This document shows positions 20,095 to 61,000 of a stretch of 64,000 nt of DNA, in pieces. Position numbers and translations under genes: made by a program. How positions within the stretch are numbered: position 1 is the stretch's first letter; the number at the start of each line of letters is the position of its first letter. Origin of the DNA: Haplodiscus bocki (Eukaryota); NCBI GenBank assembly GCA_965655095.1, contig OZ296650.1, positions 47,182,001 to 47,246,000 of the forward strand. The letters run 5' to 3'. The notes beneath the pieces were generated by a model, which saw only the letters and a list, made by a program, of their open reading frames with translations, made no database searches and was not told the DNA's origin.

Positions 20095-21720
20095 CAAACC
20101 CAAAGATGAATTCCCGCGCCCGGTATTCCTCTCTGTGGTTCAGCTTTTGGACTCTCCAACCATTGTGGAGGGCTTCCAGCTCCAAAAATTCGATTCCGTT
20201 AATTATTTGTTTTATCAATTACTTGGATCTCGGCTTAATTAATTGTTTCATAATGTTTGATGTGTTCACCAAAATCACTGGAGGCTCTTGAGTGCTCATG
20301 AGACAATGTGACAAGGCGGACGGTTGCTTGTCCGACGGAGCTCGACTTACATCCAGAACAGGTGATTTGGTACACCACGAGGCTTAACATCATTTTAGGC
20401 ACTAGACAAGAGTGAAGAGAGAATGTTTTTCAGTTTTCGAGTTCTGAAAGCCACACTGGTGTTAGCTCATCTTTTTAATTCCTTGGTAAATTGATAACTT
20501 TTCAATCTTCTATATTGCAGTACCATGTTAGATCTTGGATCAGGTCATTCGGTAGACGTGTTCAGTGGAAAACTAGTTTTACCACTCAGAATCCATTGTT
20601 TTTCTCAGAAAAAGCTCGTAAAACTGAGGTGCGTACTGTTTGTGTCTCCGAAATTTCATTTGCTTTCTACAAACCTTAGTGAAACTTTTCCAAGTGGACG
20701 TTCCTTCAATATTATTTTTTGTAAGATATTGAAGCTGAAGCAACGTGTCTGAATTGAAGCATAAAAACCGTACGGGTTGGTTTTTGGTACCAGGGAGCGT
20801 TCACGATTCCTTTTTCTAGATCTCCTTTCATGCCGAGGAAGAACCTCGAATAGTTTTGAAATCGATCACATTCTGATGGAGCCAGTTTTTGCTGCGCAGT
20901 ATATATTCAATTGCATCAATTCTTGCACATGAGAACATCGTCAAAATACCTTCCAAATAATCAGTAATTATACATCTCTTCAGGGTTGATGAGTTCCCGC
21001 CAGAACACAATTTGGAGTCCTTGTTTCTCTCATGGAGACGATTTATCATTGCACCACATTGGATGGAGGCTTGATGATAACAATATTTATCATCAAGCCT
21101 CCATGAATTGTGGTGCATTGATAAAACTATAACACCGACAAAAATGCCTCATTATTTCATCTGGATCCCTACAATCCTTCTTTTCAATTCTCGAAGCGAG
21201 CATTGATACAAGTGATTTTAGTGAAAGTGTGAAGCAGCTACACTTTCTGATGAAGTCAAAAATGCAAAAGTTGTGCGAGAAAGACACCCTACTTCGTCTC
21301 AAAAACGAACTGGAATTTGATACCAGCTTGTCTAAAAAACAAACAGCCGGAAAAGTTCCAATTCAGCGCCACAATGAAGCCAAAAACATTAATAGTGTAG
21401 TCTTTCGCTTTTTGAAAAGATTTGGCTTTACCGGAAAAAAAGGGTTTGCTATAGTTTTCTTTACAAAAAAAGTCTCCCACTGTTGAAATCTATGAAAAGC
21501 AAAAACCAATATGAAAACTTCTCAAGTTCTTGGAGTATGACAACCCCTTTCAAAAAGACCTCAAGAAATTCCAAAGGTGAAAACTCAGCATCAGGTAGGT
21601 TGGAGAGATGAGCTAGGAGTGGAAAGCTCCCGATGAAATGTTTTGATTTTGTGTTGCAACTTTGCTTTTAGGCTACCAAAAATTTTCCGACATCCCAAAT
21701 TATTAAATAGTTTCATGTTG
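20095..21720 (-). mobile_element. Degenerate Penelope-like retroelement (RT + GIY-YIG endonuclease)
   Basis: SLVVYQITCSGCKSSSVGQATVRLVTLSHEH (GIY-YIG) at ~20290-20385. C-terminal LELEALH...KLNHREEYRARE. DPDEIM..F (RT motif region) at ~21150. N-terminal NLPDAEFSPLE..VF.KGLSYS at ~21540-21600. Confidence 0.8.
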
Positions 21721-21784
21721 ATAATGTTAATGATATCGTTCTGTGTGGACCACCTCGTCAGAGGGTTTTAGAGACAGAACGTGA

Positions 21785-22429
21785 ATGTTGATTCATATTG
21801 CTGCCGCTAGTGTTTTACATCGAACCATCAGAGACAGTAATATCAACATTCGAGCCCACGACATCCGTCGTATCACTGCAATCCCTGGATTGTCCCTGAA
21901 CCCGAGAGCTTTGAATCAATTCACAGTTCTCCAGAACCTGCTAGTGGGGAAGCTGAAAAACTACAGAATCCTCATCTGGCACGACGTCATCAACAACTCG
22001 CTGACACCCCACAGCTCCAACAACAACAATCCCTGCACCGTCAAAGAACTTGTCGTGATTCTGAAAGGAATCAAGAAGCAAGTTACTGCGATTGTCTACT
22101 GTCGACGGAAGTTTGAAGGAAAACTCCTGCCAGATATCAGTGAACGACTCGCAGAAACAGGAATCAGAATTATTGAGGTGAAACGTCACCTAATATCGAG
22201 ACGCAAAAACAGCGACCCAGTTTATTTGGATGAACTCGCTGAACTACACCCCACGCCAGCGTCTCAAAGCATTCTTCTGCAGACGATCTTGCGACACTTG
22301 GTGAAGAAGACGGCAGATCGCGAAGAACTGCAGCCTGTTCAAGGTCGTCGAAGGTCAAAAGTGAAGCGCCCATCGCAGAAGAAAAGGAAGCAGGCCCAAA
22401 AGAAGCAGGAAAAGAAACAACAAGCTTAG
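21785..22429 (+). CDS. ORF0: SGNH/GDSL-hydrolase-like protein with a basic C-terminal tail
   Basis: 214-aa intact ORF. IHIAAASVLHR (block I-like Ser), AIPGL (block II Gly), LIWHDVINNSL (block III Asn), AELHP (block V His). Lys/Arg/Gln-rich C-terminus. Confidence 0.6.
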   Translation: MLIHIAAASVLHRTIRDSNINIRAHDIRRITAIPGLSLNPRALNQFTVLQNLLVGKLKNYRILIWHDVINNSLTPHSSNNNNPCTVKELVVILKGIKKQVTAIVYCRRKFEGKLLPDISERLAETGIRIIEVKRHLISRRKNSDPVYLDELAELHPTPASQSILLQTILRHLVKKTADREELQPVQGRRRSKVKRPSQKKRKQAQKKQEKKQQA

Positions 22430-22546
22430 TTGTTTAGTTGTTGTTTTTTTTTTGCTTTTGTTTTCTGTCCCTTGGGAACTCGCTGAGTTTGTTCTCGCGT
22501 AGGTCCCTTGGTGGCAGTAAGCGTAAGGCTCGTCCCCCCGCTCACC

Positions 22547-23413
22547 ATGGCACCCTGCAAGACATGTAACAAATCAATCGGTGCAAGAGATCTAACCTAT
22601 CATTGCCTTGCGTGTGAAACTACAATGCACTTAAATCCGACTTGCACAGGACTTTCAAACGTAGCAATCAATGGCATCAAGGAACTAGGCGCACGAGTAG
22701 CTCTTTTCTGCGACTGCGTTGAAAATAATCGTAAAGATCATCTTCTGAACACAATTCAGGCCAATGAAAAATTGAACTGTAAACTTGAGAGCCTTGAGCG
22801 AACGATTGAGAAGTCTATAGATGAGAGAGTCAGTAGTGTGGTTGAGAAATGCGAAACTAGTATTGAAGAAGTAGTCACGAAGGTCATCGAGAAACGGCTT
22901 GAACCACAAATCAAAGCCATACCTAACAAAACTGGCCCACCCAAATCACCCAAGACCCATCACAACGTCAAGTCAAGTTTTCGTGTGCGTGGTCTTCCAG
23001 AAGACCTCACCAAAAATAAAGAAGAAAATGCGCTCCTAGCAAATGAAAAACTTAAGGAAGTAATGACAGAAATAGGAGTTGATGTAAAAATCGAGCGGCT
23101 TCAGCGTCTCGGTAGATTTGATAAGGAACGACCGACCCCAAGGAACGTCATAGTCACTTTGAGCAATGACTGGGATGTCCGAATTGTACTTGCTAAAAGT
23201 GCTGAAAATAGAAAGAGAATGAAAGAGATGGGAATTCACATCTTGCCCGCCTTGTCGGCCGAGGATGCCAAGAGAGAAAATATGTGTCTGAAAAAACGGC
23301 GCGAGCTTCTGAACAACGGTATCACTCCATCGCAACTCAAAATACGGAACTTTGAACTTTTTCAAGATGGGTTTCTTGTCCCCCTAAGTGAAGAGCAACC
23401 CGAGCAGGATTGA
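22547..23413 (+). CDS. LINE ORF1p: PHD finger, coiled coil, RRM/CTD (L1-ORF1-like)
   Basis: Strong ATG context CACCATGG at 22547. CKTC..CLAC...H....C...C.C PHD pattern, heptad-rich middle, then FRVRGLPE, QRLGRFDKERPTPRNVIVTL and ILPALS.E. Confidence 0.88.
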   Translation: MAPCKTCNKSIGARDLTYHCLACETTMHLNPTCTGLSNVAINGIKELGARVALFCDCVENNRKDHLLNTIQANEKLNCKLESLERTIEKSIDERVSSVVEKCETSIEEVVTKVIEKRLEPQIKAIPNKTGPPKSPKTHHNVKSSFRVRGLPEDLTKNKEENALLANEKLKEVMTEIGVDVKIERLQRLGRFDKERPTPRNVIVTLSNDWDVRIVLAKSAENRKRMKEMGIHILPALSAEDAKRENMCLKKRRELLNNGITPSQLKIRNFELFQDGFLVPLSEEQPEQD

Positions 23414-26260
23414 CTATCGCAACTGAATTGCCTTCTTTTAAACACTAGAAGTCTAATTGATGTAGATAGAAGAATGAAGTTTGCAACGGCTGTTAGCTTG
23501 AACACCTGTATGATTCTTTGTCTCACGGAAACATGGCTTACCGCAAACATAGGCGACTCTGAGCTATATCTATGTAATTTTAACATCTACCGCAGTGAAA
23601 GAGAACCAACAAAGGAGGGCGCATCACGCCATGGAGGAGCATTGATCGCGGTAAACAAAAATATTAAGTCTGAGCAGCTCAATCTGAAACTTCCCAACTG
23701 CTGCGTTGCAGCTCAACTACAGCTTCTGAAACCAATCGTTCTTTGCGTTTTTTACAATCCACCTAGAGGTAGTACCTATCGGTATACTTTTGAAGACTTC
23801 AATATCTTGGTGAACTCTCTCTTGAAAAAGAACACTCCGGTCGTTGTCTGTGGTGACATAAACTTCCCAAATACGAACTGGGACACGAACCAAAGCATTG
23901 ACGCCGAAGAAAACAACATGCTGAACGAGCTAGATCGCTTAAATGCCGAGCAAGTGATTAGGTTTCCGACTTGCGGTAGGAAGACATTAGACGTAGTCTT
24001 TGCGAAAGATCTAGTAGTAAATGCACAAATCGATGAAAAGTTTGAAAGTTGCTACAACTGTTCCGATCACCGACCGGTCTCTTTTGATTTCTACATAGCA
24101 ATGAGAAAACCGAAGCCACTTCACGATTGTTACTACAGCTACGGCTCTGCGAACTATGATGAAATAAGAACCTACATGAACCAAAATCCTTTTAGGCCCG
24201 AGTGCTTCACTAACATCAATAGAATGAACAAGGAATTTGAAATCTATTGCAACGGAATTATCGATATGTTCGTGCCCCGAAGAACGAGACATCGTCAGAG
24301 TCTACCTGTTTGGTATACGAGTGACACATCAAACTTGCTCAAGCGTGTCGAGACTCAAAGGCGACTTTATCAATCAAAACCGACCTCATATCGAAAACTA
24401 AAACTGTCTGAAATGGAAAAACTGCTGCTAGAAGAAGCCGAACGCGACAAATCAGAATATCAATATAAACTCTTCTCATCTCGAAAAACGAATTTTCTCT
24501 TTAAACATTTTAAATCAATGAACAAAAATGCTGACATACCCGAAGTTTTAAGATTTGGCACTGAAGAAGCTAAAACCATGCAACAAAAAGCAAACCTTTT
24601 AAACGAATATTTCCAGTCTGTGTACTCACAGCCATGTAAAATCTCGACAAGACAAACAAGTGAAGTAACGGAAGGATTAGTGACTAATTTTTCTGTCTCA
24701 AAGCAATTAATTAGATCAATTCTTGAAGAAACTGATGAAACAAAGTCCAGAGGACCTGATGGTATCCCTCCAATTTTCTTCAAAAAGCTAGCTGAACCTA
24801 TGAGTTGTGCATTCAACACGCTATTTAGAACTGTGAAAAGACTCAAAGCGATTCCAGAAGACTGGAAAACTGGTGCCATTTCGCCAATTCACAAAAAAGG
24901 CAGCAAAAACGCTGTAGAAAACTATAGGCCGGTTACGCTATTGAATTTTGCCAGCAAGACACTTGAAAGATGCATGAACGTCCCGCTCTACAACCACTTG
25001 GCAACACTTGTCAGTAATTGTCAGCATGGATTCATCAAAAACAGATCTGTTTTATCAAATCTCCTGTCCTACCTTAAAATGGTATCAGAAACGTTAGACG
25101 CTGACCCCAAAACCGAAATACTCGCTTTTTACACAGATTTTGCAAAAGCATTTGACAAAGTTCCCCACTCCGAACTTCTTCACAAATTGGAAAATATGGG
25201 AGTAGGCGGATGCTTTCTTCAAGTTCTAGTTGACTATCTCACCAATAGAAAACACTACGTACGTATTGGAAATTGCAGCTCAACGAAACTAAATATAACA
25301 AGCGGTGTACCTCAAGGCTCCATCCTGGGTCCGACGTTATTCTGCTTTTTCATTAACGACCTTCCGAATGCGTTTCGAAATTCCTACACGCTTCTTTTTG
25401 CTGATGACCTAAAATTTGTTACGACCACAAACAACCATGTTATAATCGAGCTTGAACTAAAACGCTTCCAACGCTGGAACAAAGAAAACCAAATGTTACT
25501 CTCTGAAGGCAAAAACGGTTTCCTAGAATTTCGCGGTTCAAACAGCAACTTCGAATTGAATACAGAGATCCTCAAACCGGCCGAATACATGAAAGACTTG
25601 GGAGTGTTCATATGTCCTGACCTAACTTGGAACAAGCATATCGATGAGAAACTCAAAAAAGCTGTACAAACGCTTTACTTTGTAAAGCGGAACACTTCTT
25701 TTCAAACAAATTCACTAGCAAAACTGTGTCTATATAAGTCTATGATACTTCCGATCATTACATACGCTTCGCCCTGTCTACATCTGAGCAAGAAATCTCA
25801 GGCCAAAATTGAAGTCTTCCAAAAACGAGTTTTGAAGTGGGTCCTTGCAGACTACAAATTACCATACAGAGTTTTGCTAGAAAAGTCTAAATTGCTGCCT
25901 CTATCCTTGTTTCTCCAAATATTGGATCTGCTACATCTATCCAAGCTGTGCCAAAATGATCGGCAAACACCGAAGCTATTTGAAAAAACATTCAACCCAA
26001 GATCGCTGACGTTCAAATTCGAACTGCCAAAAGTTAGGACAGAAAAAGCGCGCACAGAGTTTTGCTTCAGAACTTGCAGGGTGGCAAACTTTTTACCTCC
26101 CCATGTCGAATTTTTCAATCCAATAGGTCTAAAGAAACGACTGACGGCGTTCTACTGGAATCTATTTGCAACTAGATACACTGAAAACAACTCCTGCACG
26201 TGGCACTTCGCATGCGACTGCCACTCGTGCCGAAACTCCTGGAGCCTTTGGACAATATAG
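23414..26260 (+). CDS. LINE ORF2p: AP endonuclease + reverse transcriptase, Cys-rich C-terminus
   Basis: APE motifs LNTRSL, LTETWL, HGGALI, YNPP, GDINFP, LDVV, SDH. RT motifs GPDGIP, NYRPVTL, QHGF, DFAKAFDKV, GVPQGSILGP, FADD. Open from 23414 (first ATG 23474). Ends CTWHFACDCHSCR. Confidence 0.97.
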   Translation, partial: LSQLNCLLLNTRSLIDVDRRMKFATAVSLNTCMILCLTETWLTANIGDSELYLCNFNIYRSEREPTKEGASRHGGALIAVNKNIKSEQLNLKLPNCCVAAQLQLLKPIVLCVFYNPPRGSTYRYTFEDFNILVNSLLKKNTPVVVCGDINFPNTNWDTNQSIDAEENNMLNELDRLNAEQVIRFPTCGRKTLDVVFAKDLVVNAQIDEKFESCYNCSDHRPVSFDFYIAMRKPKPLHDCYYSYGSANYDEIRTYMNQNPFRPECFTNINRMNKEFEIYCNGIIDMFVPRRTRHRQSLPVWYTSDTSNLLKRVETQRRLYQSKPTSYRKLKLSEMEKLLLEEAERDKSEYQYKLFSSRKTNFLFKHFKSMNKNADIPEVLRFGTEEAKTMQQKANLLNEYFQSVYSQPCKISTRQTSEVTEGLVTNFSVSKQLIRSILEETDETKSRGPDGIPPIFFKKLAEPMSCAFNTLFRTVKRLKAIPEDWKTGAISPIHKKGSKNAVENYRPVTLLNFASKTLERCMNVPLYNHLATLVSNCQHGFIKNRSVLSNLLSYLKMVSETLDADPKTEILAFYTDFAKAFDKVPHSELLHKLENMGVGGCFLQVLVDYLTNRKHYVRIGNCSSTKLNITSGVPQGSILGPTLFCFFINDLPNAFRNSYTLLFADDLKFVTTTNNHVIIELELKRFQRWNKENQMLLSEGKNGFLEFRGSNSNFELNTEILKPAEYMKDLGVFICPDLTWNKHIDEKLKKAVQTLYFVKRNTSFQTNSLAKLCLYKSMILPIITYASPCLHLSKKSQAKIEVFQKRVLKWVLADYKLPYRVLLEKSKLLPLSLFLQILDLLHLSKLCQNDRQTPKLFEKTFNPRSLTFKFELPKVRTEKARTEFCFRTCRVANFLPPHVEFFNPIGLKKRLTAFYWNLFATRYTENNSCTWHFACDCHSCRNSWSLWTI

Positions 26261-27085
26261 GGAGAAGTCCCCCCAGTCTGCAGGCTGGAAATTCACTACA
26301 ACAACAAATTTCACTGTGCCTTTCATGGGCATGCTGAACCGGCATAAATGGAGCGAACCGGGTGATTTGCCAGCGTTTAATTTACTTATTCCTTACTTTG
26401 ACAAAAAAACACGTATTTTCACCTGTTTTCCGTGGCGAAAAAAAATAGAACATTTTTCGGAGGCATAGAACCTCAACGATGTTTTCGAATGAAATGAATG
26501 GCCAAATTACAGCTGCATGACCAAATTTCTTGCTTAAATTTGATTTACATCGACTCACTTTTGTAGAATTCAACGGAGTTCCATTTTTCTTTGCTTACTT
26601 CGCACCGAAAAAAATTTTCGGTTTTTTTCGACGAAAAAATCTTCAAAATGTTGTATAGAATCCGGAAGATAAAAGGCCTGTCTTAAATAAACAATCGTCT
26701 TGTATAAAACAAACCAACATGCTTTTAGCGGCGCTATCGTAGATAAAGCCGAGGCTTGGAATCACAACGATTTCTCCACTTTTTCCCCTGGTACTTTATT
26801 TTACACCATCCGTACAGTCAAAGACAAGCACAGGCAAGTTCTCAAAAACACCAAATTGTTCTCTACGAAACTTTTTGGTAATGAGAGACAAAAAAATTGA
26901 AGAAATCGTGATACACCCCCCCCCTCCCTCTTATGCATGCATAAACTTTCTTTGATAACGGCAACTTTCAGAAACAACAAAGAGTCCGTCCCCCTCTATT
27001 GTTAAGCCAAATTTGCGTGCTCGACAGATGGGTCCCGCCGATGTTTGAGCAGCTCTCAGCTGGCTAATATAGTCTCAATGCTTAC

Positions 27086-37530: not shown

Positions 37531-39277
37531 CGATGTGAAAATTAGGTGGGTCCAGAACGAAGTGCGAAGAAAAAAAGTCTCCCAAAAAGAAATATCAGGC
37601 TAAACGAGTTCGATTTCTAACTTTATCGCAAAAGAATTTAATCGAAAGCGATTCCAACACATTAAAATTTCAATGTTTCGTACATTAGCTCGTCTGCAGA
37701 TAAAAAACGATCCACGTGATACAGGAGGAGTTCAAACAGGAACAGGTCAAACTAAAACTTTAGGCAATCCAATTCAATGCCATTTAGCAGCTATAGAGAT
37801 CATTACTTCTCCAAGCGCAAGAAAAGACTCGTACCTTGACATCACAACGTAGCTGCGTCACTTACGAACACATGGCTCCCTGTACAAGTAAAGTGCACAA
37901 AACCTAACGTCAGTGGATTTCACATATCTACACATATAAAGTCCGAAAAAAATGGACATGATCCGGTTTTGAAAGTATCTTCACCTTCAGCTTCGATATT
38001 GATGAGACCCCTGATATTTCTGAAACAATTGTTATTGTAAAATAAAACATTGATGGAGGAAATCAAGAGCGTGGTTTGGGAGCAAAAATCATCCTGAACA
38101 TCAACAAAAGTCAAGATATTCATTTTTTGGCATCCTCAGGCTGACGGGTCTTTATTACAAGGAATACCACGGGCAATATCTCCATCTAGTAACTTGAAAA
38201 AACATTTGAAAAAACGAGAGACCGATTGAGAATAGACAACCAGCTGGTAGTTTTTGGAAAAAAATGCTTGCAACCCCGTGGAACATCATTACAAAATCCC
38301 CATTTCTTGGCCATTTTAGTTCATCAATTTTCTCAGGCGACGCCAAAAAAGTTGAGGCATATACTTGAGTAGTGTACGAGAAAAAAACTCGATTTAGACT
38401 GCGGCACCGGAAAAATATTCGCTACTGAGGAAGAAAGACTTCAAAGAATAATATCGAGAAAAATGACCATTTCCACTTTCTGGCCCATTAGTTTGCCGAT
38501 GCCACGCTCAAAATCTAAGGTAAAGTAGCTGAATAACCTAAATAGTTTTTTAAAAACAGAATGTTGTCGAAAGACACCTCGATAAAAGAAAACTAACGGG
38601 TAGTTCTCGAGAACAAAGAAATTCGAGAAAAATCAGTTGGGTTTTTCACTTTCTACGCGAAAAGTGCTCATTTTGCAGGGAAAAGAGCAAAAACTCCAGG
38701 AAAGTCAAGAAAGCAGTAAGAGAATCGAAAGGACCAAATAGTTCTGTATTTGTAACGTACAGGATAAAAACAGGTTATGTACATGGCCCTGACACAACAG
38801 TAGCGGACATGCAACTTCCGAAGGCATGAAACTTCAGTAAACTTGTAACTGTATCAAATGCAGTGAGGCCAGCATCAAGCCAAGACTAGTGCGGCAGTTG
38901 TGTCCGATTCAGCCAGGTGCCTTCCGGAAAAAAATCAGCGTTCAACCTATAATATCCTTCGCCTCCAAAAATAAAAACAGGAGTAATGCTGGAACTTTCA
39001 AAGTTGACTTAGAAGGGTTAATTGCGCCAGAGTTACGTTGCTTAAATAAGAAGATGATCACCAATTGCTTGAAATCTGTCTGCGAGTATAAGCTAGAATA
39101 GAGGTTGGGCATAACTGTTTCGCCGATTTAATTCGCATCACCGCTCGATGCATTTCAGTGACAGTGTATTATCAATCACTTTTTGTGAAAGGAGCCCCAA
39201 CTGATGCAACTGGGTCCTTTGAGGCTGCAGTATATAAACAAAAAATTCCCAAACTTGTCACTTCTTTATCCCCTTTG
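37531..39277. repeat. Segmental duplication copy A (~1.75 kb)
   Basis: Nearly identical to 40217-41963 at an offset of 2686. The ORF track repeats at the same offset. Confidence 0.97.
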
Positions 39278-40216: not shown

Positions 40217-41963
40217 CGATGTGAAAATTAGGTGGGTCCAGAACGAAGTGCGAAGAAAAAAAGTCTCCCAAAAAGAAATATCAGGCTAAACGAGTTCGAT
40301 TTCTAACTTTATCGCAAAAGAATTTAATCGAAAGCGATTCCAACACATTAAAATTTCAATGTTTCGTACATTAGCTCGTCTGCAGATAAAAAACGATCCA
40401 CGTGATACAGGAGGAGTTCAAACAGGAACAGGTCAAACTAAAACTTTAGGCAATCCAATTCAATGCCATTTAGCAGCTATAGAGATCATTACTTCTCCAA
40501 GCGCAAGAAAAGACTCGTACCTTGACATCACAACGTAGCTGCGTCACTTACGAACACATGGCTCCCTGTACAAGTAAAGTGCACAAAACCTAACGTCAGT
40601 GGATTTCACATATCTACACATATAAAGTCCGAAAAAAATGGACATGATCCGGTTTTGAAAGTATCTTCACCTTCAGCTTCGATATTGATGAGACCCCTGA
40701 TATTTCTGAAACAATTGTTATTGTAAAATAAAACATTGATGGAGGAAATCAAGAGCGTGGTTTGGGAGCAAAAATCATCCTGAACATCAACAAAAGTCAA
40801 GATATTCATTTTTTGGCATCCTCAGGCTGACGGGTCTTTATTACAAGGAATACCACGGGCAATATCTCCATCTAGTAACTTGAAAAAACATTTGAAAAAA
40901 CGAGAGACCGATTGAGAATAGACAACCAGCTGGTAGTTTTTGGAAAAAAATGCTTGCAACCCCGTGGAACATCATTACAAAATCCCCATTTCTTGGCCAT
41001 TTTAGTTCATCAATTTTCTCAGGCGACGCCAAAAAAGTTGAGGCATATACTTGAGTAGTGTACGAGAAAAAAACTCGATTTAGACTTCGGCACAGGAAAA
41101 ATATTCGCTACTGAGGAAGAAAGACTTCAAAGAATAATATCGAGAAAAATGACCATTCCCACTTTCTGGCCCATTAGTTTGCCGATGCCACGCTCAAAAT
41201 CTAAGGTAAAGTAGCTGAATAACCTAAATAGTTTTTTAAAAACAGAATGTTGTCGAAAGACACCTCGATAAAAGAAAACTAACGGGTAGTTCTCGAGAAC
41301 AAAGAAATTCGAGAAAAATCAGTTGGGTTTTTCACTTTCTACGCGAAAAGTGCTCATTTTGCAGGGAAAAGAGCAAAAACTCCAGGAAAGTCAAGAAAGC
41401 AGTAAGAGAATCGAAAGGACCAAATAGTTCTGTATTTGTAACGTACAGGATAAAAACAGGTTATGTACATGGCCCTGACACAACAGTAGCGGACATGCAA
41501 CTTCCGAAGGCATGAAACTTCAGTAAACTTGTAACTGTATCAAATGCAGTGAGGCCAGCATCAAGCCAAGACTAGTGCGGCAGTTGTGTCCGATTCAGCC
41601 AGGTGCCTTCCGGAAAAAAATCAGCGTTCAACCTATAATATCCTTCGCCTCCAAAAATAAAAACAGGAGTAATGCTGGAACTTTCAAAGTTGACTTAGAA
41701 GGGTTAATTGCGCCAGAGTTACGTTGCTTAAATAAGAAGATGATCACCAATTGCTTGAAATCTGTCTGCGAGTATAAGCTAGAATAGAGGTTGGGCATAA
41801 CTGTTTCGCCGATTTAATTCGCATCACCGCTCGATGCATTTCAGTGACAGTGTATTATCAATCACTTTTTGTGAAAGGAGCCCCAACTGATGCAACTGGG
41901 TCCTTTGAGGCTGCAGTACATAAACACAAAATTCCTAAATTTGTCACTTCTTTATGCCCTTTG
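40217..41963. repeat. Segmental duplication copy B (~1.75 kb)
   Basis: Starts CGATGTGAAAATTAGG, as at 37531. Only a handful of substitutions. Ends in a 20-bp tandem TTTGTCACTTCTTTATGCCC x2. Confidence 0.97.
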
Positions 41964-42577
41964 TCACTTCTTTATGCCCTTCGTCACCTTAAGCTGTCTT
42001 TCATTTCCGAAACATCAATATCCTTCATGGAATTCCGCTGTTCAGTCGGAAGTCAAGTTTCCCAAAAACCAAACAGTTTCGAAGTATTATTTAAATTTGA
42101 GGTAATTGTCAAAATTGCTCCGGTAATCTTGATACGCTCTTTAATTCAATCGATTCTTTTGAGTGAAAAGAATTTTATTTTTTGTACTTCTGAATTCATG
42201 TAAAAACTGGCCTTCCTCTAGGTTTAACATAATATTGTTTTTTTTTCGGCGCAATTTATGTTCCAGTGCAGTGAATTTCCGCAAGAATGATGTTCAAATG
42301 TAAATAAAATTAAACACTGCATCAACGCATGAAGCCCAACAGGACGCTTCGGAGTGCTTGAGTGGAACAGGTGTGAGAGTAGTTGTTCCAGTTAAACACT
42401 CGAATGCAGGTATTTTTATGCTTAGTCTTACGTTCAGTGTTACTCATAGCTACCGTTGCGGTCTGGTTGGTTAGGAAATCTGTCTCACAGAAAATTTTCC
42501 ACAATCTTTCGTACGATTAAATTTTGTTCCAGCATACAGTGGTTGATCACTAAACCAAGTGTTTTCAACAACAGGGC

Positions 42578-42777
42578 NNNNNNNNNNNNNNNNNNNNNNN
42601 NNNNNNNNNNNNNNNNNNNNNNNNNNNNNNNNNNNNNNNNNNNNNNNNNNNNNNNNNNNNNNNNNNNNNNNNNNNNNNNNNNNNNNNNNNNNNNNNNNNN
42701 NNNNNNNNNNNNNNNNNNNNNNNNNNNNNNNNNNNNNNNNNNNNNNNNNNNNNNNNNNNNNNNNNNNNNNNNNNNNN
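42578..42777. other. Assembly gap (200 N)
   Basis: Run of N. Confidence 1.
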
Positions 42778-50339: not shown

Positions 50340-50990
50340 ATGAACAAAATTATTCTCACAAGCGACCGTCTTTTAACGTCCGTTGTTGGTCCTGGTGGAT
50401 CTGGGAAGATTAAACTGATTTTCTCCATGTTAGCTTCCAATACATTTCGTCCCAGTTTCAATAAAACGTTCTATTTTTACAAAGAGTATCGATTTTATTT
50501 AACGAGATGGCTAAAGAACTAAAAATAGAGTTTGCTCCCTGATTCGATTTCAGCATGATCAAGAAGCTAGAAGATTGCCTACTAGTTTTCGATGATTCAT
50601 GCGAAGAAATTTATCAGGAAAAGGAGTTTGTGAAACTTTCTGTTGCCGGAAGAAACAAAAAAGTTCATTGCGTTTTCGTGAAATATAATATTGTTCATCA
50701 GAGTAAATGGTCGCGTAGCATTGACGTCAATACAACTCACAACATTTTGTTCCAGTCACCACGCGAATTATAAAAAATTGATCACTTTGGTAGGCAGCTG
50801 AAGAAAGTTCAGTCCTTACAAGATTGTTATAAGAGTAACTTCGGAACCTTACAGACACTTGTTGATTGACTAAGATCCAAAAACTAGCGAATGCTTACGA
50901 TTTTGTTCCACTATTACAGCACCAGGTGCCAGCATATTTCCTATACCCTCCGAAATAGCCAAAGAAACGATGATGCCAAAATTTTAGATG
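50340..50990 (+). pseudogene. FtsK/A32-like packaging ATPase
   Basis: Walker A VVGPGGSGK, Walker B LLVFDD, AGRNK, ILFQSPR, PYRHLLID. Confidence 0.93.
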
Positions 50991-51530
50991 ATGCAACGAT
51001 AAGCGAAAAAGCTAAGAAACTTACTTTGCTTCAAAGACAGCACAAGTCTTCAGAAAAAGTTGAACCCGATGAAAAGAAGGATAGAAAATTTCCGTCGAAC
51101 CCATTGCAGGAAGAAATCATTGAGAAAAGAGTGCTGAAGTCACTTTCAATGATGAAACCATGGCAGAAAGAAAAAAGCAAAACGAGTCTCCGGAAAATAT
51201 ACGACTCAAACAATATTTCAATAAAAGATGATGGTTTTCTAAAAATTGGCTACAGAGAAACTTCGACTCAAGCAACAAAGTTTCTTCATAACCTGCAACA
51301 ACCAAAAACAGGCCTACACGATCCAGACTATAAAAAACTTCTCGACAAAATTGACATTTCGCCTCATTTGGTACCTAATTCAACAGCCAAATCATAGTTT
51401 CAACCTACAAGCGGTAAGAAAAGGGTTGGAATCAGTACCCAAAAAAAAAACAAAATTCCCAAAAAACGACACTTGACAAGTATCCCTTCCGATGATGCCT
51501 CATCTATCGAGGATCCTGAAGATGAAAAGC
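50891..51530 (+). pseudogene. Polinton hypothetical protein between ATPase and integrase
   Basis: 168-aa Lys-rich ORF (50891..51397) with a frameshifted acidic tail; true start probably near 50970. Confidence 0.5.
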
Positions 51531-51549
51531 ACTCAACGAGACGCTGGGA

Positions 51550-52410
51550 TCATATCTAACTACTACGAGAAAAACTTAGAATTACTCCATCGGAAAGGAC
51601 CAGCAGCTTACGGAAGTATAACCAATTTACAAAAAGCAAATCGATTACCCCGGAAAAAGTTGAAAACTTCCTGAGAAACAAAAATGCTCACACAAAGTAC
51701 AGACAGTTCCACCGAAAGTTTCCACGTCTCAAAGTTATCTCAAACGACATTGATGAAAGCTGGTCCATTGATGCTGCCTGCGTTGACAAGTTAGCCAAGT
51801 AAAATCATGGAGCAAATATTTACTGGTTGTTGTTGACGTTCTGTCACGAAAACAAAGAGTGGAACCCATGCACTCGAAATCTGCAGAGGAAACTGCAAAA
51901 CCCGTTAATCAAATGATAAAAAAGAAGGAACCACGGAAAATTTGGTCGGACAAAGAACTGAATTCAGAGGTTCTTTTGAATGTTTTTGCCGAAAGAAACA
52001 TAAGGTCGTTGAAAAACATTTTCTACAAACATTTGGAGAACAAATTGTCGTATGACTACATGAACGAATTGCAATCATTTGTACAAACGATCAATTCTCG
52101 CGTCAACAGAATGACTGGTTTGGCACCAAATAAAAAATTCGAAGCGACATGTTCCAAAATTAATTTCAGTACAAGCTAAGCAATGGAGGAAGTTGGTTTG
52201 GAAACCAAAATATGAAATAGGCAACGGGGTTCGAATTGCGAAACAATATTTACCTTCCGAGAAAAGTTAGAAGCAAAATTTCACTCACGAAGTTTTTCGG
52301 ATTACCAAGGTTGCAGCATTCAATCCGCCTACGTATTCATTGGCTGCCAAAAACGAAGACATTCAAGGGAAGTTTTATGAACCAGAACTGATCAGAATTC
52401 GCCGAAGATG
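51550..52410 (+). pseudogene. Retroviral-like (rve) integrase of the Polinton
   Basis: GPAAYGS, WSID..VDKL, LLVVVDVLSR, IWSDK, AERNIRSLK, INSRVNRMTGLAP, EVFRI, GKFYEPEL. Confidence 0.93.
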
Positions 52411-53245
52411 GACGAATTTGATATCTACATAGTGTCAACCGCTTCAATGCAAACCTACCGCGACAACAAAATGGCATGTTTTCGCAACGTGCTTTCTGAA
52501 CTCTTGCAGTTGGATGGAGACTGGAGAGTTGCATTGGCAGAAATTACCTTTCCTTCTAGTATCAAAAACGTAACAACCAAGGATTACTTCATTTACAAAC
52601 CTGGCACGGCAAAGAAACTTTGTCTAATCTCAACCGCTCAGCCTCAGCAGGTGTGATAGTTGAACGTCCGAATTTTTCCAGCAACGCAACATTCCCAGAC
52701 GGAGAAAGCATAGAGAAAATATTGGAATTAATGAAAACGGGTACAGTACTCAGCAAACCACTCCTGAAAGCAAGTTGCGGAGAGAAAACGTTTGAGCTGA
52801 AGTTTGCAGAAGGCTATGGCATCAGTGCTCGAGACCGCAGCTTATCGGACGTTTTAGGGTTTAGCGGTATCCCTGACACCAAACGAGGTGGATACTTCAT
52901 CGGAACGCACAAGAAGGTACGAATCAAACGCAGCCATTGAAAGGAGACTTTCCAGCCGACATTCTCTAAGGAACAGAAATCTTTTTTGTTACTTACAACA
53001 TCATCGAACAACAACACGTTGCTCGCGTGAAAGCACCAATATTAAGCGTCATTGATACAGGAAGAAAGCTAACAGACAGTAAGCTCAATATCACATCTTC
53101 TACAACTCATAAAACATTCACAGAGTTGCAATTCAAAAAACTAATTCAGTCAGAGACGTTTACGTTGAGCTGGTCACACCTACTGAAAATTACGTTCCTT
53201 TTGTTGGCGCAGGAGGAGTATTTACAACTTGAAGGTTTAGAAAAT
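52408..53245 (+). pseudogene. Minor capsid (penton) protein
   Basis: FDIYIVSTASM.TY.DN....FRN.L...LQLDGDWRVALAEITFP; NIIEQQHV...KAPIL; VELVTP...VPF. Confidence 0.85.
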
Positions 53246-53254
53246 TTTGAAGCG

Positions 53255-53593
53255 ATGGAAAATTAATATTCACGTCAAGCTATCACGCCACATTTTACCG
53301 GCCTTGCTCGTCAACGAGGTGGCGGGTTTGGATCCTTAGCACTCGGTGTTGGACGTGTTGCATTGCCTTTCGCAAAAAAAGTCCTTCTACCTGCTGTTCA
53401 TACGATTGGTAAAGAGTTAGTCGTCCAAAGTTTGGCAGAAACAATGAAGTTGCTACAAAGAAGAAATCTATCAAACAATCAGCAAAGCTGCCCTGAAAAA
53501 GACGTTCAAAAACGAAAGAAGAATTGGTGGGCGTAGAAAAAACAAACATTCCACGAAAACGCAAGCTACAGAAAGTTCGGTCAGAGAAGTTAA
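53255..53593 (+). pseudogene. Small basic QRGxG-motif virion core-like protein
   Basis: ARQRGGGFGSLALGVGRVALPFAKKVLLPA; Lys/Arg-rich tail. Confidence 0.7.
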
Positions 53594-53595
53594 AA

Positions 53596-54920
53596 ATGTT
53601 ACAAAACGTTCTACCAGTTAAAGCAACGCATAGGTCGTTGGATATATTCGAAGGACCCCTCTTCTGATCACATTCGATACTTCATTTGAGCAGAAGATCG
53701 GACACCTTTATAGTCCCAAAGGACCTACTTAAGAGTTCGAAGTAGTTAGAAGTAAAAGAGATAGAACCAACTTCATCGATTTACTACAGAACATCTACCT
53801 CGAAGTGATGTGCAAATTTCTTCAGCGGGACAGCAGTAACCTTCATTTCACCACTGGAGATGCAGCGGCAAGTGATTCAACCGTTTTCGTCAACAACACA
53901 TTACACTCGTTATGTTCTGACTGCAGTGTCTCTGCAAATGGCATCAAAATTTCTTAATCCAATGGAAACTATGCGCAGAAAGCTTTCATCGAGACAGAGT
54001 TTTCTAATAAAAGATAGGCTAAGGACACATGGTTGAAATGTCAAGGCTATTGCTACGAAAAATCACCAGACACTTTCCTTTCACCGATGCTGTGTTTACA
54101 GAGCGTGAAAACGAGAAAAAACGGTCTGCAGTAGTTACATTTATTGGCAAAGTTGCAGCTGATTTTTTCTCCTGTGATAAATATCTTAGCAGCGGCGTAA
54201 CCCTCCGGGTATCTGTTCTCAGAAATCGTCCCGAACTCTGTTCGATTTAAGATGATGAAGCGAAAGATTACAAGATTGAAATATCACAAGGAAATATGTA
54301 TCTAGGTAAATTGACAGTTTCTGAAAACGTTTACTCTGCAATTGAAAGTGCCCTGACAAAGACACCTGCAGCAATCTACCGATACACGGATAGCATACCA
54401 AAAACTTTTCTAGTTTCGGCAGGTTCGAAAAGCTCGAACCATGAGGACATTTTTAACTGCGAACCAATCCGACGTTTTGCTTCAGCGATGACAACAAACA
54501 AAGCCTTCTTTGGCTCGAAAGCTGACAACCCTTTTCAGTACCAAAGTTCAACCTAGAGAGCATTCCGGTGTACCAGAATGGTTATCCAATTGCTGCAACA
54601 CCGCTACAGCCAGGCAACGACAGAAAACTTTATCTAAATTGTCTCGAGGCTCTTGCATTCGAATCTCACGGCCATGGTTTCCCACTTTCCGAATTTCCAA
54701 ACCACTACGTTTTATTTTTCGAACTAACAAGTACCCAACAGGCTTCTGACGAACATTTATATCCTGGGTTAACCAACGGCTCCATATCAATTGATTTGCG
54801 CTTCTCAGCCGACCTAACAGACAACCTAGAGCTGTTCTTTCTGGGTGAAAACTCTTCAACAATTCACATCAATTCCTCCGGTAAAGTATCGATATACACT
54901 TTTCTCAATACGAAGATTGA
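53596..54920 (+). pseudogene. Double jelly-roll major capsid protein
   Basis: SLDIF, EFEV, NFIDL.NIYL, FVNNTLHSL.SD, NY..KAFIETE, ADFF..DKYL..GV, NPFQYQ, FFELT, IDLRFS. Confidence 0.9.
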
Positions 54921-55367
54921 TGTCAAGAAACGATCGATGAAATTGGTTTATAGAGAGTTGTTAATAAACGTGCACACTTGGCATATAAATTTGAGGGAGT
55001 TTATTCTGCGGAAAATTTCCCTGTTACGCTCACAGAAAACACTTCCGTTATAGTCAATTGAGACAACTCAGAAAAAGACGGAACTGAATGGCTGCTCTAA
55101 TGCAATAGGCAGCACAATTGCAACAGGCGCTGCTTTGGCGACCCACCGGGTGTACCTCTTCCATCTTACAAGAAAATTTCCTGTCGTCTGGATTCGACTG
55201 ACTTCAGGATGAAGGAAATCAATAATTATCAACTTCAGAAACCCACATCTAACTTTTGCGGACTCTACTGCATATACGTTGCTCAATATGTGTTTAGCGC
55301 TTACTATGCTTTATTACCTATGATATCAGAAGAGGAGCTGCTCCGATTTGCTGAGCAAACTTTATAA
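54920..55367 (+). pseudogene. Adenain-like cysteine maturation protease
   Basis: FEGVYSAENFP, VIVN.D.S...GTEW (catalytic His position mutated), FGDP, QLQKPTSNFCGLYCIY. Confidence 0.85.
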
Positions 55368-55719
55368 TGCTGTTGCCACTACTTCTGTTGGCATTAGGAA
55401 AAATATGGAGCATTGCAAAAGTTTTGAAGGCTGATGAAAATCACGTAGTAATCAACAAATTACAAATTTCATTCAACTTATCCATACTGAAAATTGTAAC
55501 TCAGAACTTGAAAATTCATAATTTCAAAAACCTCTTTTCTAATCCGTAAAAACATGGTTCAAAACAGAGGACTGAAAGGAAAAGTCTCAAGTCAGTTAGA
55601 AATGCTAAAATGCTCAGCAAAAGAAACTCACGATCCACTGAAAAAATTGAAGAAACGTTGCACAAATTCCACTTTTTTGTTTGAACTGCAAAAACCAATC
55701 ATGCTTTCAAATCGCCTTT

Positions 55720-56229
55720 CTAAGGCTGTTCCAAAAGTTGCAGCGCGATTTTTAACAGCTTACCTCTATTGAAAATCGGTAGAAAGTGAAACACTTCAAA
55801 TGAAATATTTGAGAAAAGTACAACCCTAATTGAATTAGTGGAGAGTTTGGTTGATTTCGCGGGTGCTTTATTCTGGAACCACTTTTCGGGTCGTTTCGGC
55901 GCTCCAACAGTATTTCTTCTGTTTCCAGGTTGTGGTCCCATGTTAATGTTTTCCGCGTTGTTGATCAGCTCTTGAAACTCAGGAACTGTCAGTGTAACAC
56001 GCTGATCGCTGTAAAATTCGCCATCCGCTCTCTTTTTAAAGAGTTTGAGGAAAAGACAAGTTCCAGTAGTTCTGTAGGTTTTTGTAGTGACCCTCAATAA
56101 TTTTCTTTCGGTTTTCGAGACGTCGACGAAACTCTCTCCGAAATCTTTGTCGATAGAAGAGGTGAAAGGACGACTAACTTTAATTGAGTTAAGGAAGGAA
56201 GTTGAAAAGTGGAAATGAGATTGAGACAA
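55720..56229 (-). CDS. PC4-like ssDNA-binding protein (tentative), opposite strand
   Basis: LLRVTTKTYRTTGTCLFLKLFKK...QRVTLTVPEFQEL resembles the PC4 fold pattern; largely uninterrupted. Confidence 0.5.
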   Translation of the reverse strand: MSQSHFHFSTSFLNSIKVSRPFTSSIDKDFGESFVDVSKTERKLLRVTTKTYRTTGTCLFLKLFKKRADGEFYSDQRVTLTVPEFQELINNAENINMGPQPGNRRNTVGAPKRPEKWFQNKAPAKSTKLSTNSIRVVLFSNISFEVFHFLPIFNRGKLLKIALQLLEQP

Positions 56230-56777
56230 AGAAGTTAACTAAACAAAGAATCAAATTTTAAAACGAATGAACTTTGGGTTCATGCGTTTACCTTGAGACC
56301 TAGTTCAAAATCATCAATCAAAAAATTGAATAAATCTAGGTTAATTACTAGCAAGCGCACACCGTACAAACCATAGCAACCAAAAATAGATTGAACACAT
56401 CTGATAGGAGCTTTTGTACAATCCCATCACAAAGAAAAGATATACATCGAAACATTAAACTTCAATTTTTTGTACACATGGTCAACTTGAAAAAAATAGG
56501 ATGTCCAGACCTTGTTTGTATTCCAGCGTGATAAAGAAAGTAGATGTGTAGACTTTGTTTGAATTTCCTCACGAAAACGTAAGTTTTTCGACAGGCAAAA
56601 CAGTTGTGTGAAATATGTCATAATCTAACAAAACACACTTTCTATTTTCATCAAAAGTGACCTGCTATCAGGTTCTGATTGCGTTAACTATTCTATCATA
56701 CTTTATTTTACGACAAAATCAACTACTTGCTTTTGAAAGTCTTCGAAACATTTATTCCGAAATGAAAATTGAAATTC

Positions 56778-56997
56778 AAACTTTTACTGACTGTAGAAAT
56801 TTTACTAAATACACATTTTACGAAATTTGGTTCAATGATAAAATTATTGGTATGGAGAAAAAATGATGGACGAAGATTGGCAAGTTATGACTTGCCAATC
56901 TTCGTCCATCATTTTTTCTCCATACCAATAATTTTATCATTGAACCAAATTTCGTAAAATGTGTATTTAGTAAAATCTCTACAGTCAGTAAAAGTTT
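56778..56997. repeat. 220-bp near-perfect palindrome (108-bp arms, 4-nt loop, 1 mismatch)
   Basis: 56778-56885 is the reverse complement of 56890-56997 except at one position; loop TATG. Confidence 0.98.
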
Positions 56998-57044
56998 AGT
57001 ATCGTTACTAAAATCCTTACTGAAAATCCTAAAACTGAAAGCAT

Positions 57045-57158
57045 CGGCTCCAAGAATTTCTACCAGTCTTGGAAACGTCCTAACGTCACCTAACAACTAT
57101 CCGGGTCCAAGAATTTTTACCATTCATGAAAACGTCCAACGTCAACCAACAGTTATCG
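57045..57158. repeat. Two imperfect ~57-bp tandem repeats
   Basis: TCCAAGAATTT.TACCA.TC.TG.AAACGTCC.AACGTCA.C.AACA.TATC occurs twice. Confidence 0.85.
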
Positions 57159-57910
57159 AGCAAAAACAGTCGATCGCTTAGAGTTACCGACGCAGGTCAA
57201 AAAAGTAAATTTTAAGTGAGATTGTGAAGAAATATCATTGTCGGAGGATCCGATGGGGTACTTCAGCGACCTAGACACTCTTGAATGGTTCTGGGATATA
57301 GTCAAGGAAGAAGATTTTCAAAGGACGAAAGAAGTAACACCTCCATCTTCTTTCGAGACACCTGTCAAAAAAGCACTACAGGAGAAGGTGAGTTGTTGGT
57401 TTATCAAGAGCCAAAAACAGCGGGAAACATTTCAAATGGTGATGTTTTTACATGTCAACGACCGAAGACTCCTGAAACAATGAGTTCAAACGAAAAAAGA
57501 GTCCTCCAGCTCCGAAGAAACCCAAAAAAACAAGAGGGATTTATTTGAGTTTGGGAACGATCCGATTCCTCAGAGCTGTGAAAAGGAGAATCTGAAAGTG
57601 GTATGAGCAATCAGATATTGTAGTTTGTTATGTTTGATATGTCAAAACTTTCGAGTTAAACTTCTTCTTTTTTATTTATTTCAGTGTTGACAAAAAGTAA
57701 ATTCCGTTTTGCGCCAGCTTTTTGTATCACTTCAAGACAAAAGTCTCCTTCTGAAGGACTTTTTCTCCCGAAGCAGGAAATTCAATTTATGCATTTGTAA
57801 AGACAGAAATGACAGTGAACTCTAAATAAAAGAGATCAGCTGAAAGGTTTGTGGCAACATATCACAAGCAAGCGGCCAGCTCAAAAGGAATTTCAAAATC
57901 AAACTTCCTT

Positions 57911-58030
57911 AACCAATCAGAGAAAGGTTGCAATGCAGATCTAAGGAAATAGGATTGCAAAATGACTGACTATTTCAACCAATCAGAGAATAAAAGCAGT
58001 TGCAACAAAAACTAACTTTGCATATAAATC
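57911..58030 (+). promoter_or_regulatory. Putative pPolB promoter: duplicated CCAAT boxes and TATA
   Basis: AACCAATCAGAGAA at 57911 and 57977, TATAAA at 58023, ATG at 58040. Confidence 0.45.
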
Positions 58031-58039
58031 ATTCTCAAA

Positions 58040-61000
58040 ATGCAACGTAATATTTGTTCCAAAAAAATTGAAAATCGACAAAACCTAAACTGAAATCGCA
58101 AGAAAAATCAAAATTTTAACAGGAATTTTTCTGCAGTTCTTGTGATCTCAACTGTAAAACACTATTGGCAATGCAAGTGCACTTATCATCCTAACACAAT
58201 GGGAAACCGTCGCGGAACTGGGTTTACTGCCAGAAAAAATTTACGACGGATTCAGAAAACATCTAAGGGAACAGCACAGACTTACCATGCGTAAACAGAC
58301 AGACAAAAAAGACGACCGAACTTTCAGTTCAGCTTTCAACAACACATTGAAAAAAATTGAAAAGTGAGGCGGAAGATAATCACGACTTGCTAGAATTTTT
58401 GTTCGAGAAAGAAATTCTAATTAAAGAAACTTTGATGGAAACGTGGCAACAGAAACCAGTGGAAGTACAACTCTCAGTGAAACCAATTGAAGAAGACACC
58501 GACAAAATAGAAGTTATTTGAAAGCGGATATGACTCGTTTTCGCTCAAGCTCTGGCAAAAGAAACATTTTTCGAGATCATAGACAAATTGCTTTCAACGT
58601 TATTTTCGTTCACATCGCAAGGGAGTGGGTGGATAGTGGACAAAATGAAAACTGTGCAATTCAAAATGGCTCACTTTGCACTGGTGAGCGGATCGTCCTA
58701 CTTAGCTTTACGATCGGAATTGCAGGGAGTACAGAGCCTTTTGAATATTCGTAACCATCTTGACAACAAATGCTTCCTTTACTGCTTTACAGCGGCATAC
58801 TATTTATTTTCACGGTCCACCGCTAAAAGCTGATACTTTGCGAACAGTTACAAGCCGGCCACTCTACAGCAGTAGCAACCCTTCAGCTCATCGAGCAATA
58901 GCCGACTTTGACGTGCCCATGGGATTTAGAGACATGGCAAACTTTCAGATTCTCAACGTACAAGTAAATGTTTTCAAATGAGAACAAACCGCTGTTCCCG
59001 TTGCGTTTATCGAAAAATTACTTTGAGTTCCCGCTGGACCTTCTTCTATTATAAGACGACCAAATTTATCATTATGTTTTCATTACAAATATATTGAGCC
59101 TAGTCAACCACGTTAGACAGAGACGACCACGAAGTGATGACAAGCTGTGTCGTAACTGTTTTCAAAATTGCTCACAGGAAAGTTAAATCCATCATCATAC
59201 CAATTGTGTAAAATTCGAGGCAGCAACAACCAAAATGCCCGTATCAAATGCTGACAAAGTTGAATTCAGAAACTTCAATGCACGAGCATATGTTCCAGTT
59301 ATAAATTTGGAATCCCTCATCATCCCCATAAAAAGTTGTGATGATAATCCCTCAAGTAGCTGGATTCGCACTTTGGAAAATAATACAATTAGCAGTTTTT
59401 GTCTGGTGATAATTGAAAGCGGCTCAATGCAACGGGTACATGTTTCTATAGATCGAACACCAACGTGCATGCAAAAATTGGCAATACAGCTTCAGGCAAT
59501 TGCAAAAGAAATTTACCAGAGAAAGCAAACCCATCGCATCTACAAAGGTAGACCGGATTATTCAAGTGATCAAGTTAACGACTGTTGGATTTGTGAGAAT
59601 CCAATTCACGATGAGTTGAAGGTTCTACATCACTGCCATTTCCCCGGAAAATTTCTAGGTTACGCACCCAAACAATGCAACCTTAGACGAAGCATAAATT
59701 ATATCCCGGTCATAGCACATACCTCCTCCAACTACGACATACATCATTAATGTAAGAACTTACATGAATTCGAGTCAGGATGCAATATTGAACTTGTACC
59801 TGCTACCAACAAAAAATATATTACGGTAAGAACTGGTGTAAAAGTCAATTCTTACACAGACAAAAGAGGTGTCGCCCAAAACGTTTACTAGCACTTGAGG
59901 TTTATTGATTCTCACCGATTTTTACGCCCACCGCTGGAAAAGCTGGTTAATTACCTGCCGACAAACTTTTCAAATACTGGACAACTACTTTGAAAATATC
60001 AGCCTTCAGAAAGAGAGCTTTTATATCAGAAAGGAATTATCCCTAGTTATTTCGATTCCTTTAAGAAGTTCCAAGAAAATCAACTTCCCCCTATAAACTA
60101 CTGGACCAACAGGCTCAAGGGCAACGAAACTTTCTTGAATGAAACAGAATACGGACATGCCGAAAAAGTTGTCTTCTTTTGGTTGTCAAACAGTGGGCGA
60201 CTATCACAACCTGTACTTGAAAACGGACACATTGCTGCTTGCCTGTGAAGTGGATGAATTGAGAAAGCTGTGTTATGACACATATGGCCTTGATAGAGCA
60301 CATTATTTCACTAGTTCTCACCTGTCAGGTGATGCTTTCGTCGAAATTTTGTCGAGCCGACCTACACCTACTGACAGACCGTGAAAGCCTTGAAATGACA
60401 AAAAAATGATCCGAAGGGGTGAAGCTTCAATCTTCTCGATACGATTTTTCAGAGCGAACGACAAGTACAAGAACAGCTGCAACCCTGATGATGAATCGAC
60501 TTTTTGGACTACTTCTCGACGCTAACAATTTATATGGTGGGGTTATGGAAAAACTACCTCTTCCTCTCAAAGACTCCCAGAAAGTTGAGATCCCCCTCCA
60601 AGATATTCTCAATACGGATATCGATTCAAATATTGGATATATTCTTGAGGTTGAAAGAGAGTACCCCGACAATTTTCATGATCAACAAAAAAATTTTCCT
60701 CTGGCGCCCAGAAAAGAAAATACTGAAGAAAAGTTCCGAAACGAGTTTCAATTGAACCTACTTGAAAAAATCGGATTTAAAAAAATGAATCACCAAAAGC
60801 TGATGCAGACACCAAACAACAAAAGTAACCAAACTGTCCACTATCTCAATTTGAACATCTATATGGAGCTGGGCTTAATAGTAAAGAAAGTTCACAGAGT
60901 TCTGCAGTCAATCAGTTTGGTTATGCCCAAACATTTTGCTCAACACAGAGAATAGACAGCGATCGGTTAAAAAGTTCCAGCGTTTCTCAAGCTGATGAAC

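Follow-up and report, generated by a model that had tools for sequence, protein, structure and literature searches.

How the second ORF (open reading frame) in a long interspersed nuclear element (LINE) is translated when it lacks its own start codon is the question raised by a 64 kb stretch of Haplodiscus bocki contig OZ296650.1 (here called the window; coordinates are counted from its first nucleotide). The window carries an apparently intact LINE of about 21702-26310 (+), a full-length non-LTR (long terminal repeat) retrotransposon of the APE (apurinic/apyrimidinic endonuclease) type with three ORFs. The original prediction, made from the same DNA, described ORF1 and ORF2 and proposed readthrough of the stop codon between them; the upstream third ORF (ORF0) was absent from that account. 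From the comparison of sequences described below, it is probable that ORF2 is expressed by programmed UGA-CUA readthrough of the alphavirus type, yielding a 1237-aa ORF1p-ORF2p fusion.

The codons originally quoted for the junction (GAG CAG GAT TGA CTA TCG CAA CTG AAT TGC CTT CTT TTA AAC ACT AGA AGT CTA) were found to be exact. A single TGA-CTA separates ORF1 from ORF2 without a change of frame: the ORF1 ATG (22547), the TGA (23411), the codon that follows it (23414) and the earliest ATG in ORF2 (23474) are all in register. ORF2 is open directly after the stop, with 948 codons from 23414 to a TAG at 26258-26260, and the computed fusion length agrees with the earlier estimate of about 1240 aa. 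A model of the endonuclease domain (40-sequence alignment, mean pLDDT, the predicted local distance difference test, of 95) matched the L1 endonuclease in Foldseek with an E value of 5e-13 and a TM score of 0.75. Residues 4-10 form the first β-strand of the model, and a profile alignment places Asn10 and Glu39 of ORF2 opposite two residues of human L1 ORF2p, the Asn of LNVNG and the Glu of QET. The first APE motif thus precedes the first ATG, as had been noted: Met21 follows strand 1 and the conserved Asn10, and initiation at Met21 would, according to the model, cost the endonuclease both.

Relatives of the element were obtained by a metagenome scan with the ORF1 alignment, in which three of 417 candidate stretches were confirmed (L001, a full element; L002; and L003, a decayed copy). 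Protein databases and Logan contigs supplied the remaining copies. Their ORF1 sequences are 40-41% identical to that of the window and 50-56% identical among themselves. The junctions read TTT TGA CTA GAC in L001, AGA TGA CTA TCT in L002 and TAT TGA CTG GGA in L003. A differing frame relation, which would have spoken against the original prediction, was seen in none of the three relatives with DNA; all four elements keep the frame and the nine codons from the stop to the Asn. The linker ahead of the stop varies in length and sequence, while the distance after it is constant.

Synonymous sites are saturated at this divergence, the window and L001 using the same codon at 18 of 96 fourfold sites in ORF2 and at 4 of 22 in ORF1. 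Outside the junction, 17 columns hold Leu in the window, L001 and L002 alike, and not one of them is CTA in all three; of the 76 Leu columns common to the window and L001, the only one with CTA in both is the junction itself. Judged from these alignments, the TGA-CTA motif is kept at the nucleotide level beyond protein constraint. In a single copy the arrangement might have been accidental; it exceeds chance because all three relatives with DNA keep it and none of the six other stops of the four elements is TGA-CT. The joint chance for three relatives is about 0.0015, a rough figure that assumes independence. Readthrough is favoured because the type of stop, the next codon and the frame are fixed while the neighbouring codons drift.

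Protein entries from about eight further lineages, drawn from the best 150 of 1485 ORF1 representatives, continue as far as the endonuclease. In place of the stop they have W, C or R, each one base change from TGA, and Leu comes next in all but one. Their spacing from the stop position to the Asn is nine residues where the Asn is visible, and ten in P0248.

Such entries bear on the possibility that the element is naturally one ORF and that the TGA is a nonsense mutation of the window copy or its subfamily. C or R at the stop position in some of them fits this explanation, as does the existence of natural single-ORF PHD-APE-RT LINE proteins (RT, reverse transcriptase; P0041, 1271 aa, and P0047, 1317 aa). 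The window copy itself carries private deletions. Against contigs of four sequencing runs (X4-X7) it lacks 1 nt at 22485 in the ORF0-ORF1 spacer, present in all four runs, and 3 nt at 22710, a PHD-finger codon present in three, and on this account it differs from the family master. The same TGA nevertheless stands in all three distant relatives with DNA. At the junction, which is covered by X4 and X6 (X5 gives no coverage and X7 begins at 23429), one contig of each run crosses without a gap, and no change at 23411-23416 was present among 40 of 101 rows of the comparison. P0041 and P0047 lie on a separate branch of the RT tree.

The database proteins of the same families point the same way. Of the 22 junction-reaching proteins of the window family (listed members, at most 15 per cluster), 17 end exactly at the stop, three read W-L and two end a few residues earlier; of 19 such proteins in the L001 family, 16 end at the stop, two read W-L and one is frameshifted, and in the L002 family all 11 end there. 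In total, 44 of 52 stop at this codon, and a nonsense mutation is thus barely credible. No family-wide sense codon, the finding that would have undone the original prediction, was seen. A sense codon behind the W residues was considered and rejected where testable: P0109 also reads W at four of four out-of-frame TGAs, P0144 at one and P0178 (L001 family) at 12, so that all three are gene calls with TGA taken as Trp; P0105, P0185 and the distant entries fall outside that test. A search for fused forms found no protein of 768-2190 aa with an ORF1 alignment among 8000 candidates, which is weak evidence. As a separate observation, TGA=Trp gene calls on eukaryotic contigs cross in-frame UGA stops and can be mined for such junctions without DNA.

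The W residues might also suggest that in the host UGA has been reassigned to an amino acid, or encodes selenocysteine, the element being simply one ORF. Besides tracing to TGA=W gene calls where testable, these residues are at odds with the codon usage of the elements: Trp is encoded by TGG 24 times in the four, in-frame TGA occurs once in each, at the junction only, and ORF0 of L001 terminates in TGA. Rfam, with the selenocysteine insertion sequence (SECIS) included, gave no matches above threshold on the four sources, and the 3' untranslated region (UTR) is about 50 nt long. Recoding by the host is therefore extremely unlikely.

Removal of the stop at the RNA level was weighed as well, either by splicing with TGACT as the branch point or by adenosine-to-inosine (A-to-I) editing of the UGA. 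TGAC resembles the branch-point consensus. Counted from the T of TGA, there is an AG at 40 nt in the three junctions that are long enough, and another at 37 in three of four. These AGs, however, are part of the NxRS motif, where they belong to the codons for Arg12 and Ser13, and their use would lose strand 1 and Asn10; nor would a branch point require an in-frame TGA. The duplex that editing requires was not predicted by folding. Both routes are very improbable.

The signal itself corresponds to a described class. Viral readthrough of type II is the class defined by UGACUA (PMC13517186). In HEK-293T cells, a readthrough of 1.5% was obtained with UGA-CUA alone (PMC4132726). In the four elements the UGA is followed by CUA in three and by CUG in one, in frame with the downstream coding region. 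The same hexanucleotide occurs in Sindbis and o'nyong-nyong viruses, with the viral polymerase downstream of the stop, and in mammalian UGA-CUAG genes (PMC13517186, PMC4132726). Unlike these viruses, the window element is a retrotransposon, and the stem-loop downstream of the Sindbis site has no detected counterpart in the LINE. The type III signal, UAG-G followed by a pseudoknot, was not found, all four elements having UGA-C and no stable 3' fold being detected by programs that are blind to pseudoknots. As a side observation, L001 1995-2004 (TGA CTA GAC A) matches at all ten bases the readthrough site of o'nyong-nyong virus given in a table of PMC13517186, presumably by convergence or chance.

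Several points weigh against programmed readthrough. The four elements are related, which makes the chance figure rough, and the decayed L003 has CUG after the stop, a TAA three codons past the junction and, as its seventh codon, ATG. In the window and L002 the context is UGA-CUA-U, without the stronger CUAG. The entries from further lineages may be decayed copies, TGA=W calls or genuine fusions with a sense codon (there is R in P0275 as well as in P0380). No stimulatory 3' structure was found with folding programs that do not predict pseudoknots (15 tests with synonymous shuffles gave z scores of -0.84 to +1.27, and six with dinucleotide shuffles gave -0.37 to +0.83), and the signal therefore seems to be context-only. 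An in-frame gag-UGA-pol junction of the LTR element Tca2 gave no readthrough in yeast reporters (PMC2194720). Finally, in three relatives, the protein entries P0005, P0006 and P0008, the gene call begins one residue ahead of the Asn, and these may have a start of their own there.

These three calls favour another explanation, namely termination followed by AUG-independent reinitiation near the stop, as proposed for mammalian L1, which would release a free ORF2p. Precedent exists in the unconventional termination-reinitiation of L1 and in the stop-start coupling of SART1 (PMC5972666), and start-like codons are available: CTG at codon 4 in the window, ATC at codons 6 and 9 in L002, and CTG at codon 1 besides the ATG in L003. 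They share no common position, however, and in L001 each of codons 1-10 differs from ATG at more than one base. The first Met of ORF2 is residue 21 in the window and residue 53 in L001, and none occurs in the 87 codons available for L002. An overlapping stop-start in the ORF2 frame was not found. Reinitiation requires neither the same frame nor UGA nor CUA, yet all are conserved, and it is an unlikely source of ORF2p here.

Under programmed readthrough, the majority of ribosomes would halt at the UGA and release free 288-aa ORF1p, while a few percent would insert a near-cognate residue and continue to the end of the fusion. The usual near-cognate residues at a read-through UGA are Trp, Cys or Arg. 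The fusion would be the sole source of intact endonuclease and RT, and the level of leakage would set a high ORF1p:ORF2p ratio. More speculatively, the ORF1 part of the fusion might tether the enzyme into multimers of ORF1p on its own RNA. The fusion may stay uncleaved, since no protease domain was found.

The proposed mechanism would work like alphavirus nsP3-nsP4 or retroviral gag-pol readthrough. The gammaretroviral comparison made in the original prediction holds for the logic of a rare fusion and fails for the signal, Moloney murine leukaemia virus (MoMLV) using UAG with a pseudoknot (type III; PMC13517186) and the LINE UGA-CUA with no downstream structure found. MoMLV and Tca2 share with the element a structural protein, an in-frame stop and an RT polyprotein, with the ratio set at the stop. 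MoMLV cleaves its fusion with its own protease, for which the window element has no detected domain. Tca2 also differs in that yeast tests of its junction gave no readthrough (PMC2194720).

Among non-LTR retrotransposons, the nearest precedent is found in the Group 3 elements of Paramecium tetraurelia, for which readthrough has been proposed from sequence alone and for 12 consensus elements (PMC5405496). In these, too, ORF1 and an APE-RT ORF2 are in frame across one stop. They form a ciliate-specific clade with CCHH-type fingers, however; a count by eye gave TGA-TTC, TGA-GTG and TGA-GTG for three junctions; the endonuclease core begins about 35 codons past the stop; and the available text of that paper describes no conserved leaky motif. 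A literature search, with subscription papers and Repbase outside its reach, returned a proposal of LINE readthrough for Paramecium only, and nothing on readthrough at UGA-CUA in the LINEs of animals. Human L1 and silkworm SART1 likewise produce ORF2p at a low level from a bicistronic RNA, but by reinitiation (over a 63-nt spacer in L1 and an overlapping stop-start in SART1) and as a free protein (PMC5972666).

A quick RT tree (70 of 76 ORF2 rows; six rows with short RT coverage were left out) placed the window element, L001 and P0002-P0007 in one group with a Shimodaira-Hasegawa-like approximate likelihood-ratio (SH-aLRT) support of 100; it contains no named CR1 or L2 references and shows near-relative grouping only. 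The RT motifs of the window ORF2 look CR1-like. N-terminal fusions to the endonuclease are tolerated in other lineages, since P0041 and P0047 are single-ORF proteins.

LINEs of the CR1/L2 lineage include a type IIC with PHD and Tnp22-like regions and a type IV with an esterase (PMC4120745, PMC3905857). The window element resembles them in the putative PHD and weakly L1-like RNA-recognition motif (RRM) region of ORF1, in a predicted SGNH fold as in ZfL2-1 ORF1p, in the APE-RT ORF2 and in the short-repeat tail. In CR1/L2 elements the esterase and PHD-Tnp22 are alternative types of ORF1, the esterase being an ORF1 domain that replaces the RRM domains and that within the superfamily occurs only in vertebrate subgroups, as far as these two sources describe (PMC4120745, PMC3905857). 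The window element, in contrast, has a predicted SGNH fold and a putative PHD-RRM together, in separate ORFs, and its ORF2 is without a start codon of its own.

The assignment of ORF0 to the SGNH fold draws on several comparisons. ESM features gave 0.90-0.91 to SGNH/GDSL clusters. A model built from four sequences (pLDDT 68) matched 1yzf in VIA-align with a Z score of 10.7 and a root-mean-square deviation (rmsd) of 3.7 over 161 aligned residues, along with many other SGNH folds; the top rows were almost all SGNH/GDSL proteins, and the best Foldseek match had an E value of 0.0024. The ZfL2-1 esterase was not among the matches listed in either fold search, which excludes nothing. As modelled, ORF0 has the flavodoxin-like SGNH fold. 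The candidate catalytic Ser, Gly and Asn align in the two or three sequences that cover them, and the candidate His is present in three of four elements (Asn in the decayed L003), with no Asp three residues ahead of it. From its predicted fold, ORF0 is a putative SGNH hydrolase.

ORF0 or a homologue lies upstream of ORF1 in all four elements (417-989 in L001, 1-495 in L002 and 1-243 in L003), with a gap of 96-189 nt to the ORF1 ATG and a Lys/Arg-rich C-terminal tail, and the ORF0-ORF1 linkage was also seen in the copies P0122, P0125 and P0133. The start Met of ORF1 is common to the relatives. The top ESM clusters for ORF1 carry PHD_Pygo/PHD on 12-42% of their members. Profile matches were weak (L1 ORF1p 2ykp, E value 0.07; Pygopus PHD, E value 0.32), and Pfam matches fell below the cutoffs; of the type IIC features (PHD with an L1-like coiled coil, RRM and C-terminal domain, CTD), the PHD is supported by ESM and the L1-like part is weakly suggested by the 2ykp match.

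The coordinates of the features are presented in Table 1. The element has an N-terminal APE endonuclease and RT in ORF2, lacks LTRs and ends in a CAA-repeat tail, also present in L001. Copies occur on many long contigs; within the 64 kb window no self-repeat of the LINE was found and it is present as a single copy. The 5' end was placed from the contig depth in run X4, which climbs in the bin 21681-21761 with a loose end at 21701, and from a 12-nt motif at 21702 that is common to the distant relative L001 (position 371). A 6-nt target duplication is possible (21696-21701 and 26305-26310; it overlaps the tail).

Table 1. Features of the LINE in the window.
Feature	Position	Strand	Description
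ORF0	21785..22429	+	214 aa; SGNH-hydrolase-like fold (predicted), basic C-terminal tail, own TAG stop
ORF1	22547..23410	+	288 aa; N-terminal PHD-type zinc finger, then region weakly like L1 ORF1p RRM-CTD
TGA CTA	23411..23416	+	ORF1 stop (TGA 23411-23413) and predicted readthrough signal
Pre-ATG stretch of ORF2	23414..23473	+	20 codons; endonuclease strand 1, Asn10 (23441-23443), beginning of helix 1
APE endonuclease domain	23414..24094	+	Pfam PF14529 (E 2e-10), PF03372 (E 5e-7); Foldseek
Reverse transcriptase domain	24887..25522	+	Pfam PF00078 (E 8.5e-29), ORF2 residues 492-703
3' UTR	26261..26308	+	Short; two small predicted hairpins (fold without shuffle control), CAA-repeat tail

Other features were recorded elsewhere in the window. 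A 1747-bp direct repeat with 99.5% identity (37531-39277 and 40217-41963) lies shortly ahead of a 200-N gap near 42570-42770 and is either a recent duplication or an assembly artefact. Fragmented ORFs at about 350-9100 (-) resemble a decayed LTR retroelement, with an RVT_1 match (E value 6e-8) at 7483-7845. Those at about 50900-61000 (+) gave only a weak integrase match (E value 0.005) at 51787-52176, and are reminiscent of a decayed Polinton-like element. Self-complementary stretches at 56778-56997 (220 bp, 98%) and 21042-21125 (84 bp, 86%) are possibly like miniature inverted-repeat transposable elements (MITEs).

For very few LINEs, L1 and SART1, is it established how a bicistronic RNA gives rise to ORF2p, and both reinitiate. 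A broader proposition is that, throughout a clade of animal LINEs, the endonuclease-RT is produced solely within an uncleaved ORF1p-ORF2p fusion, through alphavirus-type readthrough of UGA-CUA on an RNA with an additional SGNH-fold ORF upstream; it seems to us evenly balanced between true and false. The clade offers a phylogenetically supported signal of six nucleotides that is directly testable in reporters, and mutants with a sense codon in place of the stop would be a simple means to probe the effect of the ORF1p:ORF2p ratio on retrotransposition. Automated annotation truncates ORF2 proteins of this kind or scores intact elements as broken. The proposition predicts a LINE RT that carries its own ORF1p. 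If it is true, the enzyme would be a covalently attached part of the ORF1p particle, which would solve stoichiometry and cis preference in a way unlike the reinitiation of L1, and retrotransposition would respond to the level of readthrough in the cell.

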